From a phage: a stretch of DNA of 64,000 bases. The stretch is taken from sequence record PZ445446.1; one strand, 5' to 3'. Positions within the stretch are counted from its first letter, which is position 1. Each line of letters begins with the position of its first letter. The notes under the pieces were generated by a model. The model was not told the DNA's origin, searched no databases, and saw only the letters and a program-made list of their open reading frames with translations. The translations under genes and the position numbers were made by a program. Shown piece after piece: positions 6,890 through 64,000 of the stretch.

Positions 6890-7900
6890 TTTTAAGTTAT
6901 CAGATTGCCAGAGATCAGGAGGATTTCTAAAATGGATTTCCTCCTTTTGATATTTTACCTACCAGGATATTTTAAAATCCTTAGAAAATCAGAAAATGGA
7001 TCGAAAACTAAAATGGATTTTTCAGAGCAGGCACGACGAGATGAACCACTCATCCTATCGTCTGCACCATATTCCAGACCACCATTACAGATTTCCCGCA
7101 CATGCTCACACCCTTCTACTAGAACTTCCCCCACTTACCCTTGACCTTTTATAGTAATAATCCAACCACTACCTTGAAGTTGTGGCGCAGCTTTCCAAGT
7201 ACTCGATCTGTTTTTCGTTTCAAAGATTGAATTTTCTGAAAATTTTTCTCGATAAATTTCTCAGTACTCGATCTGTTTTTCGTTTTCTGAATCGGATTTT
7301 CTGGAAATCGTTCCGGCTCTCGACCTGAAATTTTTGGGGACGAAATCGATTTTTCGTTTTCAGAAATGGATTTTTAAAATTTCTATATGGGAATATTTTA
7401 GTGGATACTATTTTATAGGAAATTGTTACGGAGGATAATTAGCGTGCTAATTAAATTTATTAAATGCGAGGAGTTCTCATTTAGAATTTTGAATGATAAT
7501 CATTCTCGTTTGCAGAATAACGGGCAGGCCCGGTGATTGTCTCCCGGCCCCTACTGCCCCGGCTTGTTATTATAGTAACACACAGGACAAAGAAAGCAAG
7601 AAGTTTTTGCATAAATTTTTAGACGATAATGATAATCGTTCTCATTTCATGCAGCGCCCATCCCCGGTGGTTGTCTCCCCCGTCACCGGTGCCTGCCGTC
7701 CTTTCGATAGGTATATTTTGCCACCTGGCGGGGCCGCTGTCAACACTTTTCAAAAAAAAAAAAAATTCTAACCTGATGCGCTGACCGCTGCAACCTGGCG
7801 GGGCCAGCCTGGCAGGGCCTAACTGACCAGGTAGGAGAGAATGAAGGCTTGCAAACCTGGTGGGCCTATGCTATAGGATAGGTAACAATTGAAGAGGAGG
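6890..7900. repeat. non-coding repeat-rich region
   Basis: Two direct copies of gtactcgatctgtttttcgttt (~7200 and ~7264), several aaatggattt / gattttc units, paired gataatc(a/g)ttctc and gtg(a/g)ttgtctccc copies, and an A14 homopolymer at ~7752-7765. Confidence 0.6.
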
Positions 7901-7907
7901 TACAAAA

Positions 7908-8045
7908 ATGGAAGGTAATATGATCCCCCTGGTTGAAAAGGCTATGGCGGGAGCGTTGGAACATAAAGAAGAGTACGAAAAAATGATGGTTAACCTGGCA
8001 GGGGCGGCGGCTGGAGAATTCTACCCAAAAAATAATTTTAACTAA
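7908..8045 (+). CDS. hypothetical micro-protein
   Basis: 45 aa ORF not in track; strong SD agaggagg 6 nt upstream of ATG. Confidence 0.35.
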   Translation: MEGNMIPLVEKAMAGALEHKEEYEKMMVNLAGAAAGEFYPKNNFN

Positions 8046-9549: not shown

Positions 9550-9900
9550 ATGAATACTTCCATCACTATGACCGCCGAAGAAAAAGCCCTGCAGATCGCC
9601 GCTCTGAAAAAACAGATTGCAGAACTTGAAGACAAGATCGACAATTTTGAAATCGACGAAGACAAGTACGACGATAAATATGATGAATGGTTAGACGAGA
9701 TCTACGGCGAAATTATGATCGGAAACATTTCTTTTCTTCCGTCGCGTATCCTCAAGGAGCTAGATCCTATCGCTTACCGCTGCGGATTTAGCGACTACAT
9801 CGACAGCCTGGATATTGAGGACGATGAAGAATACCAGGAATTACAGACAGAGTTAGAAGAAGCAAAAGAAGAGCTTGCAGAACTGGAAGAAAACGAGTAA
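9550..9900 (+). CDS. hypothetical acidic coiled-coil protein
   Basis: 116 aa ORF with aaaggagaaaac SD; highly acidic and heptad-like. Confidence 0.5.
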   Translation: MNTSITMTAEEKALQIAALKKQIAELEDKIDNFEIDEDKYDDKYDEWLDEIYGEIMIGNISFLPSRILKELDPIAYRCGFSDYIDSLDIEDDEEYQELQTELEEAKEELAELEENE

Positions 9901-60871: not shown

Positions 60872-61210
60872 ATGGCGGATACAACTAAAAAGCGTCGCCG
60901 TAGAGGCAGACCTCTGAAAGAGGAGTCCAACGCCATTCAGCTAGAGAAGAACATCCTTGATATGAAGGAATCTTTTATAGCGATGGTTCCAGAAGCTCAC
61001 AAAGTTTTAAGAGAGCTGATGTTGGACCCGAAAACCAAACAAAATATTCGTCAAAGCATTGCAGAGTATGTTCTTGATAAGGCAGACCGAATGCAGGAAG
61101 AATATGATGAGATGTTTGGTGAAGAGGAAGAGGTGGTAGTGGAAGAGGCTGAAAAACCAGCACCTTTTATGCCATTTACTACAGAAATACAGCCTGTTAG
61201 CAATAGCTAA
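60872..61210 (+). CDS. small basic DNA-binding protein (possible terminase small subunit)
   Basis: Start at ATG 60872 with ggagga SD; N-terminal KKRRRRGRPLKE basic/AT-hook-like segment, acidic C-terminus; function inferred only from position and charge. Confidence 0.35.
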   Translation: MADTTKKRRRRGRPLKEESNAIQLEKNILDMKESFIAMVPEAHKVLRELMLDPKTKQNIRQSIAEYVLDKADRMQEEYDEMFGEEEEVVVEEAEKPAPFMPFTTEIQPVSNS

Positions 61211-61219
61211 AATATTTTC

Positions 61220-61248
61220 TTGACAAACTTTGCTTAACAGTGTAATAT
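61220..61248 (+). promoter_or_regulatory. sigma70-like promoter upstream of tRNA cluster
   Basis: TTGACA, 17 bp spacer, TAATAT. Confidence 0.5.
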
Positions 61249-61306
61249 TGTAAACATGGTCTCCCACCTTTTCTGGCGGCTAAGGTGTAAAAGAAAGCCA
61301 CCCAGT

Positions 61307-61381
61307 GCCCTGTTAGCTTAGTGGATAAAGCAGCGGCCTTCTAAGCCGTTGACACTGGTTCGAGTCCAGTACGGGGTGCCA
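61307..61381 (+). tRNA. tRNA-Arg (anticodon UCU)
   Basis: Hand-folded cloverleaf: acceptor gccctgt/acggggt (two G-U), D-arm gctt/aagc, anticodon loop cttctaa, T-loop ttcgagt, encoded CCA. Confidence 0.7.
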
Positions 61382-61385
61382 AATT

Positions 61386-61472
61386 GGGGAGTTATCCCGT
61401 AGAGGTAGCGGTGTAGACTGTAAATCTATTGTCATTGCGACTCGGGTGGTTCGACTCCACCACTCCCCACCA
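61386..61472 (+). tRNA. tRNA-Tyr (anticodon GUA), type II
   Basis: Acceptor ggggagt/actcccc, anticodon loop ctgtaaa, long variable arm, T-arm ggtgg-ttcgact-ccacc, CCA encoded; close to E. coli tRNA-Tyr. Confidence 0.75.
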
Positions 61473-61586
61473 AATTTATATTTTTAGATGCATAAATAAT
61501 ACAGATAATGGCATTGATATTTATCGTCGTTTATACTAGTCACTAACTGCTCGAAAATCAGTGTCATTATCAGTATAATTTATAAA

Positions 61587-61677
61587 GGAGGGTAGGGAGC
61601 AATGGTGCTCAAGCGGTCTTGAAAACCGTCCCGTTGAGGATGACTCGATGATGGTTCGATTCCATTACTCTCCGCCA
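61587..61677 (+). tRNA. tRNA-Ser (anticodon UGA), type II
   Basis: Acceptor ggagggt/actctcc, D-stem gagc/gctc, anticodon stem gcggt/accgt with loop cttgaaa, long variable arm, T-loop ttcgatt, CCA encoded. Confidence 0.7.
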
Positions 61678-61766
61678 CATTGTTGACCTTGTAATTAAGC
61701 GAAAGCCGGAAGCAGAACCGGATTATCAAATGTTACAGTCGTCATCGCCGACTAGCAACATGGTCA

Positions 61767-61863
61767 ACATACTGAGCTAGGTAAGCCCTTTGGCAAGGGC
61801 GAGGATTTTTAATCCTGAAAATAGACGAGGTAGTCGTTGAATACATAGGTGGTTCGATTCCAT
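61767..61863 (+). tRNA. atypical tRNA-like gene (UUU-like anticodon loop, ~30-nt extra region, no encoded CCA)
   Basis: Perfect 7-bp acceptor gctaggt/acctagc, normal D-arm (gccc-tttggcaa-gggc) and T-arm (ggtgg-ttcgatt-ccatc), anticodon-like loop tttttaa; ~30 nt between anticodon and T arms; 3' end is CCT. Confidence 0.4.
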
Positions 61864-61870
61864 CACCTAG

Positions 61871-61946
61871 CACCTTTTTGCTGATGTAGCACAATCGGTA
61901 GTGCAATTGATTTGTAATCAATAGGTTGTAGGTTCAAGTCCTGCCA
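61871..61946 (+). tRNA. tRNA-Thr (anticodon UGU)
   Basis: Acceptor gctgatg/catcagc, D-stem gcac/gtgc, anticodon stem attga/tcaat with loop tttgtaa, T-loop ttcaagt, CCA encoded. Confidence 0.75.
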
Positions 61947-61947
61947 T

Positions 61948-62022
61948 CAGCACCAAGGCCCTGTAGCTGGAAGGTTCAAGCAAGCGACTCATAATCGCCA
62001 GACGGTGGTTCAATTCCACCCA
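61948..62022 (+). tRNA. tRNA-Met (anticodon CAU; initiator/elongator/Ile-lysidine not resolved)
   Basis: Acceptor ggccctg/cagggcc, anticodon loop ctcataa, T-arm ggtgg-ttcaatt-ccacc, CCA encoded. Confidence 0.65.
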
Positions 62023-62033
62023 GGGCCACCAAA

Positions 62034-62110
62034 TAGTAAATACTCCGCGTAGCTCAGCTTGGTAGAGCGCCTGATTTGGGATCAGGAGGTCGAGTGTTCG
62101 AATCACTCCG
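62034..62110 (+). tRNA. tRNA-Pro (anticodon UGG)
   Basis: Acceptor ctccgcg/cgtggag, D-arm gctc-agcttggta-gagc, anticodon stem cctga/tcagg with loop tttggga, T-loop ttcgaat, CCA encoded. Confidence 0.75.
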
Positions 62111-62165
62111 TGGAGACCACTTTCAGTTATACTTTAAACATATATAAACAAAAGGAACCTTTAAA

Positions 62166-63223: not shown

Positions 63224-63648
63224 TGTCTAAGATTTACGGACCGTGTTCTGAAAAGCAGAAGATGATCCTCGAAAACGATGCAGATATTTTGGTAATCGGC
63301 GGTGCCGCAGGGTCTGGCAAGTCGTTCCTCTTGCAATTGATGCCACTTAAAATTATTGATGACCCCCACAGCTCTGTGGTTATGTTCCGAAGAACAACCC
63401 CGCAGTTGGAAGGTGAGGGTGGACTATGGCCTAAAGCGGTAGCTATTTATAGTGATCTGCCTGAAAACATTAAGCCAAAGTTCAGAGAGAAGGATCATAA
63501 GTTCATTTTTCCACGGTTTGATCCGAACACTGGCAAGTGGGATAGAAGCAAAAAGGGAGCTGTTGTAAAATACTGCCACATGGAGTATGTACAAGATAAG
63601 CTTAACCATCAAGGGCTTGAGTACACCATGGTTTGCTTCGATGAGGGT
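63223..63648 (+). CDS. terL: terminase large subunit, exon 1 (ATPase N-terminus, interrupted by intron)
   Basis: Walker A GGAAGSGKS and Walker B-like MVCFDEG; ORF stops after only 142 aa exactly where group I intron elements begin. Confidence 0.6.
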
Positions 63649-64000
63649 TAATTTGTAGCTCTCGTAAAACCTCCCTAATTGCGGGGAAATCTTTACTATT
63701 AATACCACCAACCTGTCATGGTAACATGATAGAGGCTTCGAAGAGAGATCGAAGGTATGGTAACAGTGTGTTAATTTAGATAATCCGCAGCGAAGCATCC
63801 GAGAGGATGAACGTTCAACGACTAGTCGAAAGACGTAGAATCAAGCGATTCGAAACGGGAGGATAAGCGGTTGTTGTCGCTTATAAGATATAGTCTGGTC
63901 TGCATGGAGACATGCAGCTGCCTGAAAATGGCGGGGCAAGACTAGCGACCTTGCCCGAACATAAACGACACAATTCGAATGGGAGCAGATAGACTATCTG
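63649..64000 (+). ncRNA. group I self-splicing intron (5' portion; continues beyond window)
   Basis: Core elements in canonical order: P-like aattgcggggaaa (~63677), Q-like aatccgcagcg (~63782), R-like gttcaacgactag (~63813), S-like aagatatagtc (~63885); exon ends in U; candidate IGS gctctc can pair with exon gagggu. Confidence 0.65.

Follow-up and report, generated by a model that had tools for sequence, protein, structure and literature searches.

In the genome of Escherichia phage rV5, the operon of tRNAs that follows the promoter P(tRNA) contains a tRNA-like gene for which the initial annotation had offered three explanations: a tRNA with an insertion, a pseudo-tRNA, or an unusual decoding or regulatory RNA. 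Which of these applies, and what might such an RNA do in a phage? The window analysed here, i. e. a stretch of 64,000 nucleotides from sequence record PZ445446.1, corresponds to rV5 with 100% identity. The length of 97 nt that had been assigned to the gene was correct; however, the true element occupies positions 61776-61872 and not 61767-61863, which places it 9 nt further downstream. Its parts are compiled in Table 1.

Table 1. Structural parts of the tRNA-like gene of phage rV5 and the promoter of the tRNA operon (positions refer to the window).
Feature	Position	Strand	Remarks
Sigma-70-type promoter of the tRNA operon	61220..61248	+	TTGACA-17-TAATAT, 10 of 12 matches; P(tRNA) in the rV5 record
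tRNA-like RNA gene, +1 to discriminator A73, 97 nt	61776..61872	+	ARAGORN; Rfam, 35.5 bits; model R1, 99.6 bits
Acceptor stem, 5' strand GCUAGGU	61776..61782	+	7 of 7 Watson-Crick pairs with 61865-61871
A8 and A9	61783..61784	+	A8 invariant across the family; U8 in canonical tRNAs
D arm, GCCC/GGGC with loop UUUGGCAA	61785..61800	+	Direct reading; U14, U15, U16 and G18 invariant; G19 present
G26	61801..61801	+	Invariant
Anticodon-like hairpin AGGAU / UUUUA / AUCCU	61802..61816	+	5 bp, 5-nt loop
GAAAA junction strand	61817..61821	+	Same in 31 of 33 distinct homologues
Extra hairpin UAG ACGA GGUAG UCGU UGA	61822..61840	+	Predicted 5-bp hairpin fold
AUACAUA junction strand, 5' of the T stem	61841..61847	+	Same in all homologues except those of phi92-like phages
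T arm GGUGG / UUCGAUU / CCAUC	61848..61864	+	Direct reading; 100% paired in the family
Acceptor stem, 3' strand ACCUAGC	61865..61871	+	Direct reading; pairing conserved in the family
Discriminator A73, CC, UUUUU	61872..61879	+	CCA not encoded; tRNA-Thr begins at 61880

The anatomy described previously was confirmed at the shifted position, with one qualification. The acceptor stem is indeed a perfect 7-bp helix. The D and the T arm, which had been recorded as canonical, are both present, with G18 and G19 in the D arm, a T loop of the T54-Psi55-C56 type, and the elbow pair G19:C56. The D arm, however, is not fully canonical, as A8/U14 replace U8/A14. The 3' end carries CCT instead of the CCA that is encoded by the neighbouring genes for tRNA-Arg, -Tyr, -Ser, -Thr, -Met, and -Pro. 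The anticodon-like hairpin can also be drawn in an alternative register with 4 bp and the 7-nt loop UUUUUAA, where G61801 and G61817 form a mismatched first pair. This is the G.G mismatch seen before, and the distance between the closing G of this register and the T stem is 30 nt, in agreement with the earlier estimate. The minimum free energy of the rV5 element is -34.2 kcal/mol (z = -4.1 compared to shuffled sequences); the element is far beyond chance.

It was conceivable that prediction programs would detect a conventional cloverleaf overlooked during manual folding, which was the case neither with ARAGORN nor with Rfam. The Rfam tRNA model matches exactly 61776-61872 and exceeds the gathering score of 29 that defines membership in RF00005. 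ARAGORN reports 61776-61874 as "tRNA-??? (atcc)". The corresponding fold (stem AUUUU/AAAAU, 8-nt loop) places 4 nt between the D and the anticodon stem and is not conserved in the homologues; it was rejected.

A BLAST search identified homologues in 188-192 phage records, with one copy per genome. A set of 33 distinct homologues of 97-107 nt was collected, every one of which lies within a tRNA cluster. The lineages are Vequintavirinae (five genera), phi92-like Stephanstirmvirinae, one N4-like phage of the Schitoviridae, and metagenomes; the variants originate from Vequintavirus, Avunavirus, Seunavirus, Mydovirus, Henunavirus, Justusliebigvirus, the Schitoviridae phage, and metagenomic contigs. 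Identity between lineages is only 70-75%, and the flanking intergenic DNA cannot be aligned. A covariance model of the family (R1) assigns 69-114 bits to the members and at most 28.5 bits to ordinary tRNAs, the best-scoring of which include class II species such as tRNA-Tyr and tRNA-Ser. A bacterial copy was not found; a scan of genome_contigs with the 3' motif gave two chance matches only (L059, L060), and a bacterial chromosomal origin was rejected. A first scan of viral sequences with GAAAATAG...TGAATACATAGG yielded six matches within coding sequence that were due to chance (L008-L010, L013, L018, L019).

Pairing was analysed for 22 cloverleaf pairs in 32 homologues. The pairs are kept in 99% of the cases, and both-sided changes occur at 14 of the 22. 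None of 500 shuffles reached these values, although shuffle statistics are inflated by the kinship among the sequences; slid controls were 28-45% paired. The acceptor stem is 100% paired with both-sided changes at five of seven pairs, the D stem is 99% paired with such changes at three of four pairs, and the anticodon-like stem is 96% paired. The fifth pair of the latter is C:G in 16 homologues, U:A in 10, and unpaired in six. The tertiary elbow between 61793 (G19) and 61855 (C56) is G:C in 21 sequences and U:A in 11, with zero exceptions. The T loop reads UUCGAUU or UUAGAUU, and the variant covaries with the D loop. The full tRNA body consisting of the 7-bp acceptor stem, the D arm, the T arm, and the G19:C56 elbow is maintained by evolution. 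Compensatory changes across three phage lineages preserve all four helices of the cloverleaf as well as one tertiary pair and the extra hairpin.

These findings bear directly on the idea that the gene is a class II tRNA or a tRNA with an insertion that decays neutrally. Such a pseudogene might account for the non-canonical loop, the lack of CCA in rV5, the oversized variable region, and the inconsistent automatic annotation. It would also fit a partial deletion in phage V18, where the 5' two-thirds of the element are lost along with tRNA-Ser and most of tRNA-Tyr. Nevertheless, neutral decay is extremely improbable: it does not lead to 99% kept pairs, numerous both-sided changes, and a covarying tertiary pair across lineages that have diverged this far, and the pair-breaking substitutions expected when selective maintenance is missing were not observed. 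Moreover, three phage lineages retain the element amid non-alignable intergenic DNA, and the homologues are too divergent for recent transfers of a single sequence. In the sense of a decaying gene, the reading as a pseudo-tRNA is not supported.

By contrast, "tRNA with an insertion" is an appropriate anatomical description. A structured insert of 26-36 nt is added to the tRNA body where the anticodon-like arm is followed by the T arm. The resulting variable region has a length of 30-31 nt in rV5, compared to 38-41 nt in most relatives, and invariant strands flank its hairpin. The exceptions from GAAAA are homologue L072 and the N4-like phage, which contain GUAAAA, and phi92-like phages carry AUACGAAAU instead of AUACAUA. 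Note that the apparent invariance is inflated by the collection of homologues on the basis of sequence similarity; some members were, however, recovered by a pattern from the 5' half only, and both strands are still present there. The extra hairpin has 24 different sequences among the homologues, all of which are predicted to fold as a hairpin. Its stem covaries in one subgroup (GCC/GGC, GUC/GAC, GCG/CGC, UUCC/GGAA), and an A:U pair is replaced by G:C in Av-05 and TH18. Inspection revealed no conserved complementarity of the junction strands with each other, with the pseudo-anticodon loop, or with the D loop. The extra hairpin was also considered as the true anticodon arm. This assignment was rejected, as its loops (GGUAG, GAACUAACAGUAC, and others) are neither anticodon-like nor conserved across the family.

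The length of this variable region exceeds the usual limits for tRNAs, which are 4-5 nt in class I and a hairpin of roughly 10-24 nt in class II (cf. PMC7609411). With class II tRNAs (Leu, Ser, Tyr, Sec; RF00005, RF01852), the element shares the 7-bp acceptor stem, a 4-bp D stem, the G18/G19 elbow, a UUCGAUU loop on a T stem of 5 bp, a variable-region hairpin, and the co-location with tRNAs. It differs in the 30-41-nt variable region with GAAAA and AUACAUA flanking the hairpin, in an anticodon loop that has 5-6 nt or no U33, and in A8/U14. In addition, ARAGORN overlooks the copy of Seunavirus, which matches tRNA-Sec of Rfam only below the threshold. Class II tRNAs are not known to have a variable region as long as this one, i. 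e. at least 30 nt with invariant single strands.

Does the RNA decode? On the 5-bp stem, the loops consist of 5 nt (UUUUA, UUAUA, AUCAA) or of 6 nt (C[ACU][UG]CCA). When the 7-nt register is applied, position 33 is an A in the AUCAA group, and the loops of the Seunavirus and Mydovirus group would extend to 8 nt. Furthermore, the loop triplet on the same body differs between sister lineages. A canonical loop, i. e. 7 nt on a 5-bp stem where position 33 is U and position 37 a purine, is not a feature of the family; in rV5 itself, a 4-bp stem with the G.G mismatch gives UUUUUAA, which can be read as canonical. With loops of 5-6 nt or without U33, and with a triplet that varies between sister lineages, decoding by the family appears unlikely. 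Beside the element, phage PVP-SE1 possesses an almost complete set of normal tRNAs, i. e. a real tRNA-Gly(UCC) and 24 others detected by ARAGORN. For the element itself, ARAGORN makes no call, Rfam yields tRNA-Sec with 27 bits (gathering score 47), and any overlapping match of the Rfam tRNA model scores less than that. In phi92-like phages, a separate tRNA-Lys is present, and tRNAscan-based annotation passes over the element.

For the rV5 lineage, one has to consider a working but structurally aberrant tRNA-Lys(UUU), whose anticodon arm would consist of a 4-bp stem plus G.G and a loop of 7 nt, with 30 nt in the variable region. Such a molecule could supplement the host tRNA-Lys or replace the copy destroyed by anticodon nucleases such as PrrC or AriB of PARIS. 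Its loop UUUUUAA contains U33, UUU, and A37; together with A73 at the discriminator position, these are the identity elements of E. coli LysRS. The sequence GAUUUUUAAUC is only one base away from GACUUUUAAUC, the anticodon stem-loop core of the verified E. coli tRNA-Lys. The Rfam tRNA threshold is passed in the 7-nt-loop register, several GenBank records based on tRNAscan-SE name the element tRNA-Lys-TTT, and rV5 has no other tRNA-Lys. Finally, PARIS cleaves the anticodon stem of the host tRNA-Lys, and phage T5 escapes by means of its own tRNA-Lys.

The homologues speak against this assignment, which we regard as unlikely. Their loops include UUAUA (Av-05, discriminator U or C), AUCAA with A33, and loops of 6 or 8 nt, so that the identity is inconsistent. 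The fifth stem pair covaries where it is variable, which argues for a loop closed to 5-6 nt. In addition, CCA is not encoded in rV5, in contrast to the six neighbours, ARAGORN assigns no isotype, and the variable region of at least 30 nt with invariant single strands is longer than is known for any class II tRNA. The putative aminoacyl identities are mixed. Seunavirus and Mydovirus ([U/G]CC-A with U73, G1:C72, and C2:G71) are Gly-like, rV5 (UUU and A73) is Lys-like, and the Av-05 (UAU, U or C73) and AUCAA groups match no identity set. Aminoacyl identity was therefore kept as a lead only.

Recoding, i. e. suppression of stop codons by UCA or UUA readings or quadruplet decoding with an 8-nt loop, is suggested by automatic labels such as tRNA-sup(tca) in Hena1, tRNA-Stop(tta) in JLBYU08, and "(atcc)" by ARAGORN. 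Indeed, the Seunavirus and Mydovirus loops comprise 8 nt if the closing C:G pair opens. However, the three calls correspond to three mutually incompatible folds, the UCA reading has A33 instead of U33, and the 8-nt loop demands the opening of a covarying pair. As the gene annotations of the phages concerned give no sign of stop-codon reassignment, a recoding tRNA is most improbable.

The genomic context allows for an explanation in which the released RNA has no function and the element acts in cis within the tRNA operon, as a scaffold for RNase P or RNase E, as a spacer or, in rV5, as a leaky terminator. In every case, the element is embedded between tRNAs, and it often starts 2 nt past the CCA of the preceding tRNA, namely in Av-05, Seunavirus, Mydovirus, Henunavirus, and Justusliebigvirus. 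The T arm, the 3' strand of the acceptor stem, and the U5 run of rV5 jointly have a terminator-like score. Moreover, the loss in V18 indicates that the element is dispensable, at least in the laboratory. On the other hand, a spacer needs neither a G19:C56 elbow nor invariant junction strands, a fifth hairpin, or an encoded CCA; U73-CCA is encoded at the 3' end in 24 of the 30 distinct homologues tabulated, and the U-run is restricted to the rV5 lineage. The position in the cluster also varies: the element follows tRNA-Ser in rV5 and tRNA-Thr, -Ile, -Ser, or -Leu in other genera, and its place differs again in the N4-like phage. It seems, therefore, to move as an autonomous unit, and we consider a purely cis-acting role quite improbable.

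Taken together, the occurrence in about 190 phage genomes from three lineages and the compensatory mutations make it most likely that the element is a working tRNA mimic and neither a decayed nor an ordinary tRNA. With a probability of roughly 60%, we favour a phage-restricted family of non-decoding tRNA mimics that are matured together with the tRNAs. Of the "unusual decoding or regulatory RNA" proposed at the outset, the decoding part is unlikely for the family, whereas a non-decoding, tRNA-mimicking RNA fits best.

The tRNA mimic would be transcribed together with the tRNAs and cut by RNase P at G+1, which in most relatives lies 2 nt past the CCA of the tRNA before it. After trimming of the 3' end, the host CCA-adding enzyme would complete CCA in rV5; in most relatives, CCA is encoded. 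The RNA would then adopt an L shape plus an additional protruding domain. A tRNA-binding protein may recognize it as a tRNA via the acceptor, T arm, and elbow as well as the conserved junction strands, without any codon being read. The most speculative step concerns the partner. Tentatively, this could be a tRNA-targeting defence nuclease or another tRNA-handling enzyme of the host, which is titrated or evaded by the RNA; a nuclease would fit, since phage tRNA clusters are now regarded as counter-defence loci. Alternatively, the RNA might serve as a non-ribosomal aminoacyl carrier.

A comparison with known systems puts the tRNA mimic into perspective. T4 species 1 (rnaC, 139 nt) and species 2 (rnaD, 119 nt) are stable RNAs of unexplained function, which are encoded inside a phage tRNA cluster beside tRNA-Arg. 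The element has a similar location, and rnaC contains a tRNA-type T arm (CCGGGUUCGAAUCCCGG). However, both T4 RNAs exceed the element in length, and neither has a complete cloverleaf. Scanning T4 (L061) with R1 detected only tRNA-Thr (22.8 bits) and nothing at rnaC or rnaD; homology in sequence or structure was rejected.

Anti-defence tRNAs such as tRNA-Lys of T5, which acts against PARIS, and tRNA-Tyr of T5 and T6, which acts against retron-Eco7 and Septu, are likewise located in phage tRNA clusters; defence systems also target class II tRNAs at their variable arms. The hairpin of rV5 is almost a copy of the anticodon stem-loop by which AriB recognizes tRNA-Lys, a likeness at the level of sequence only. 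Anti-defence tRNAs are otherwise canonical decoders that replace the cleaved host species, whereas the element carries an additional domain and, in most lineages, a loop that is not canonical.

The use of an acceptor/T-arm/elbow mimic by tRNA-processing enzymes without normal decoding is known from the tRNA-like domain of tmRNA and from YrlA/Y RNA-like molecules. Further tRNA mimics comparable to the element are mascRNA, the tRNA-like structures of plant viruses, tRNA-Other of Bacillus cereus, and the staphylococcal non-proteinogenic tRNA-Gly. Unlike these, the element keeps the whole cloverleaf and adds one module; it has no ORF or Ro-binding module. Rfam gave no matches to tmRNA, YrlA, or mascRNA at the element, and ARAGORN reported no tmRNA; besides its tRNA-like domain, a tmRNA would contain pseudoknots and a tag-peptide ORF, for which a length of 97 nt is insufficient. 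A ribozyme or another Rfam family was rejected, as only tRNA models match at E-values of up to 10 and a hammerhead core is absent by eye.

In nearly every genome record, the element is missing or variously named (nothing, Lys, Stop, sup, OTHER, ???). It is not mentioned in the rV5 genome paper, and we found no description in BASEL, in the Certrevirus paper, in reviews on non-canonical tRNAs, or in the papers on PARIS, Septu, and AcrIIIA1. Analyses of codon usage and recoding go astray when it is counted as tRNA-Lys or as a suppressor tRNA. The element is a tRNA variant with five helices that is validated by its evolution; a domain has been added, and the anticodon loop is degenerate. Large myoviruses that infect Enterobacteriaceae have it in common, and an N4-like podovirus has acquired it. 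Like the still unexplained RNAC and RNAD of T4, it is a tractable candidate where viruses may use the tRNA fold outside translation. One possible, if doubtful, extension is a dedicated, CCA-tailed tRNA mimic that never decodes and acts as a decoy or competitive inhibitor of tRNA-targeting immune nucleases of the host or, when charged, as a non-ribosomal aminoacyl carrier. If it were a decoy, the pseudo-anticodon loop would vary along with the tRNA species that is attacked in the respective host, being Lys-like in phages of E. coli and [U/G]CC-A (Gly-like) in phages of Salmonella, Klebsiella, and Cronobacter. If true, either role would establish a new class of counter-defence or accessory RNAs in phages, in which a conserved GAAAA-hairpin-AUACAUA module is built onto a tRNA body.

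The tRNA-cluster region (positions 61200-62150) is 100% identical to that of Escherichia phage V5/rV5 (NC_011041, Vequintavirus). Of the seven genes that ARAGORN predicted in the window, six are ordinary tRNAs (Arg-TCT, Tyr-GTA, Ser-TGA, Thr-TGT, Met-CAT, Pro-TGG) and one is a "tRNA-??? anticodon (atcc)". At this last locus, the Rfam tRNA model scored 35.5 bits (gathering score 29); one stem position is deleted in its alignment, and a 26-nt insertion falls into the variable region. The initial annotation had the length of the element right, but its position (61767-61863) was 9 nt too far upstream. tRNA-Ser and tRNA-Thr flank the element on the same strand, and tRNA-Thr starts 5 nt past its CC.

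Direct reading of the sequence confirmed the perfect acceptor stem that had been noted (GCUAGGU/ACCUAGC), as well as the spacing of about 30 nt before the T arm, which is 30 nt from the closing G of the anticodon stem drawn there to the T stem. It is also correct that no CCA is encoded: the discriminator A is followed by CC and UUUUU, whereas all six neighbours encode CCA. The D arm (GCCC-UUUGGCAA-GGGC) and the T arm (GGUGG-UUCGAUU-CCAUC), which had been called canonical, are present as well; one detail departs from this, since positions 8/14 are A/U rather than U/A in the Rfam alignment. The minimum free energy structure of the single rV5 sequence has five helices (-34.2 kcal/mol, z = -4.1).

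Coordinates of the element, of features in its surroundings and of features in loci of related phages
Feature	Position	Sequence	Remark
Element	61776-61872 (+)	window	Rfam tRNA model
tRNA-??? anticodon (atcc)	61776-61874	window	ARAGORN
Sigma-70 promoter	61220-61248	window	upstream of tRNA-Arg; rV5 record annotation and consensus scan
First long spacer	61473-61586	window	114 nt
Promoter-like site	61551-61579	window	TCGAAA-17-TATAAT
Second long spacer	61678-61775	window	98 nt
Terminator-like site	61846-61879	window	T arm, acceptor 3' strand and U5
Group I intron	63639-63917	window	Rfam RF00028, 84.3 bits, E = 5e-22
Element homologue	2488-2592	UTK0002 (locus L088)	93 bits
Apparent class II tRNA	~2400-2483	UTK0002 (locus L088)	anticodon loop TTTGAAC
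HNH homing-endonuclease gene	208-600	Raoultella phage Ro1 (locus L029)	between tRNA-Thr and element
Second atypical tRNA	9761-9846	PVP-SE1 (locus L091)	ARAGORN "tRNA-??? (ggca)"; tRNA-Lys in record
Stretch without annotation	7110-7972	PVP-SE1 (locus L091)	~860 nt, between element and tRNA-Leu
Deletion chimera	~950-1043	phage V18 (locus L006, KY683736)	tRNA-Tyr joined to element

By analogy with the known tRNA processing of E. coli and T4, the element would be matured by RNase P and 3' trimming, and a host enzyme would add the CCA. A phage CCA-adding enzyme is absent from rV5 (PMC7344957). Two spacers inside the tRNA operon are long, the others measuring 1-11 nt; neither long spacer matched an RNA family, and the first contains promoter-like sites. 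The 3' part of the element, directly upstream of tRNA-Thr, scores like an intrinsic terminator in the rV5 lineage only. Near the window end, a group I intron lies in the terminase large-subunit gene; terL consists of three joined pieces in the rV5 record.

A BLAST search with the rV5 copy yielded 125 records, nearly all with at least 99% identity; among the few diverged matches were Av-05, TH18 and a Seunavirus. The Seunavirus and N4-like copies yielded 188 and 192 records, respectively. BLAST, fetched representatives and motif-pattern scans of viral, metagenomic and genome collections gave 33 distinct homologues in all, with lengths of 97-107 nt. They stem from Vequintavirinae (Vequintavirus, Avunavirus, Seunavirus, Mydovirus, Henunavirus), from phi92-like Stephanstirmvirinae (Justusliebigvirus), from one member of the Schitoviridae, the N4-like Salmonella phage UTK0002, and from uncultured viral and metagenomic contigs. 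A covariance model of the family (R1), built on 29 members, gave members 69-114 bits, whereas no ordinary tRNA of these loci exceeded 28.5 bits, and it found exactly one member per locus. The family looks phage-restricted, because only two chance matches turned up when bacterial genomes, one per species, were scanned with motif patterns.

Every copy is located in a tRNA cluster, and the preceding tRNA varies: it is Ser in rV5, Thr in Av-05 and Hena1, Ile or Ser in Seunavirus and Mydovirus, and Leu in phi92-like phages. For most copies, its CCA and the element are 2 nt apart. The closest relative of the UTK0002 copy is that of Henunavirus (88% identity), which suggests that the element may have moved horizontally between unrelated phage families. 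Immediately upstream, UTK0002 carries an apparent class II tRNA that is unannotated. An HNH gene adjoins the element in Ro1, and one is found near the tRNA cluster of PVP-SE1 as well. In V18, a natural deletion (junction ...CTATTG followed by GTCGTTGAATACATAGG) removed tRNA-Ser and the 5' two-thirds of the element, joining the 5' part of tRNA-Tyr to its last ~40 nt (the 3' third). The chimeric tRNA-like gene is probably dead. Since most of the element is lost, it is not essential in V18.

Covariation was analysed in a model-based alignment of 32 distinct sequences, comprising four cloverleaf helices and one tertiary pair. Standard pairs occupy 99.0% of the cells (32 sequences, 22 pairs), and in 14 of the 22 pairs both partners have changed. 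No column shuffle out of 500 attained the values observed for pairing, double changes or covariation; because related sequences, collected by similarity, were compared, this count is not a probability. With the 3' partners shifted by 1-3 columns, pairing fell to 28-45%. Several pairs occur in three types (acceptor pair 3:70 is C:G in 15, A:U in 9 and U:A in 8 sequences), which means that more than a single event has left a trace. The elbow contact between D-loop and T-loop covaries perfectly: 21 sequences combine UUUGGCAA with UUCGAUU, and 11 combine UUUGUCAA with UUAGAUU, the contact being G19:C56 versus U19:A56. The covariation argues strongly for folding of the RNA into a tRNA-like L. The pseudo-tRNA considered earlier, in the sense of a decaying gene, is excluded by the covariation across homologues.

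All members have a three-part module that links the anticodon-like arm to the T stem. It starts with GAAAA (in two members GUAAAA), continues with a hairpin region of 19-29 nt and ends with AUACAUA (AUACGAAAU in phi92-like phages). Two search patterns contained the 3' motif, and part of the junction invariance could be due to ascertainment; however, members recovered with a pattern of the 5' half only all have AUACAUA, and BLAST-derived members were likewise not selected on it. The hairpin region occurs in 24 different sequences, each predicted to form a hairpin of 3-10 bp. For example, GACGA/UCGUU of rV5 is compensated to GACGG/CCGUU in Av-05 and TH18. In the Mydovirus/Henunavirus/N4-like subgroup (loci L024-L030, L046, L056, L072, L088), covarying stems of 3-5 bp (GCC/GGC, GUC/GAC, GCG/CGC, UUCC/GGAA) surround a conserved loop of 12-13 nt, GAACUAACAGUAC (AAAAUAAUAGUAC in Ro1), which is absent from the rV5 hairpin. 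Its conservation suggests that this loop may itself be a recognition site. Possibly, GAAAA takes the class I variable-loop role, its last A facing U15, and the hairpin and AUACAUA are inserted at the 48/49 junction.

Pairing in the anticodon-like stem (A/G-G-G-N-N with N-N-C-C-U/C) amounts to 96%; at the fifth position, 16 sequences have C:G, 10 have U:A, and 6 lack the pair. The loop reads UUUUA in rV5, UUAUA in Av-05, AUCAA in Henunavirus, phi92-like and N4-like phages and several contigs, C[A/C/U][U/G]CCA in Seunavirus and Mydovirus, and UGAU in one contig. As discriminator, rV5 has A, the Av-05 group U or C, and all others U. In the register of the initial annotation and of Rfam, the fifth pair is open, and a mismatched first pair is formed by the invariant G26 with the G that follows the stem. 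The loop is then a canonical UUUUUAA in rV5 (U33, UUU, A37), UUUAUAA in Av-05, [C/U]AUCAAA with A33 in the AUCAA group, and 8 nt long in Seunavirus and Mydovirus. In no register is the loop canonical throughout the family, and the central triplet varies between sister lineages while the rest of the body is constant. In PVP-SE1, the element stands beside 25 ARAGORN tRNAs, a real Gly-UCC among them; it received no ARAGORN call itself, and Rfam gives a sub-threshold tRNA-Sec match only. ARAGORN did not call it in KE22, Av-05 and TH18 either, and the tRNAscan-based BASEL annotation skipped it in phi92-like phages, which possess their own tRNA-Lys. For these reasons, a general decoding role of the family is unlikely.

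For the rV5 lineage alone, a Lys-decoding or Lys-mimicking role is a live, if rather improbable, rival, since several features point to tRNA-Lys. The rV5 hairpin core GAUUUUUAAUC is one base off GACUUUUAAUC of E. coli tRNA-Lys, a tRNA sequence that occurs with 100% identity in each of the 5426 complete E. coli genomes. The loop and A73 fit the identity elements of LysRS, and tRNA-Lys is not encoded elsewhere in rV5. Furthermore, AriB of PARIS recognises and cuts the anticodon stem-loop of tRNA-Lys, and T5 escapes by means of its own tRNA-Lys.

The database labels of the element presuppose mutually incompatible folds. The locus is blank in the original rV5 record and paper, which list six tRNAs, and nearly identical phages have tRNA-Lys-TTT, tRNA-OTHER, tRNA-Stop(tta), tRNA-???(atcc) or a blank. 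The homologue of Erwinia phage Hena1 is annotated "tRNA-sup(tca)", and small ORFs are annotated over that of Proteus phage Mydo. Eighteen "Campylobacter phage" records within GenBank MG065644-MG065682 (BLAST hits H9-H12, H46-H51) are 99-100% identical to the rV5 tRNA cluster and look like mislabelled or contaminating rV5-like coliphages.

The element has its body in common with class II tRNAs, but its variable region is oversized and constrained in sequence, and its loop is degenerate. RNAC and RNAD are stable RNAs of the T4 tRNA cluster whose role there is still unexplained; rnaC has a tRNA-type T arm, and R1 found no homology of rnaC or rnaD to the element. Phage tRNAs that act against PARIS, retron-Eco7 and Septu are canonical decoders. 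No Rfam match to tmRNA, YrlA or mascRNA was obtained at the element.

The element is real and represents, in rV5, a family of tRNA-like RNAs that looks restricted to phages and, judging by the searchable literature and Rfam, has not been described before. With a probability of about 0.6, it is a non-decoding tRNA mimic that is matured with the tRNAs and recognised via acceptor, T arm, elbow and the conserved junction module. As to its role, a counter-defence decoy is the leading but tenuous guess. The comparative evidence is solid, and the proposed mimic lends itself readily to experimental tests.
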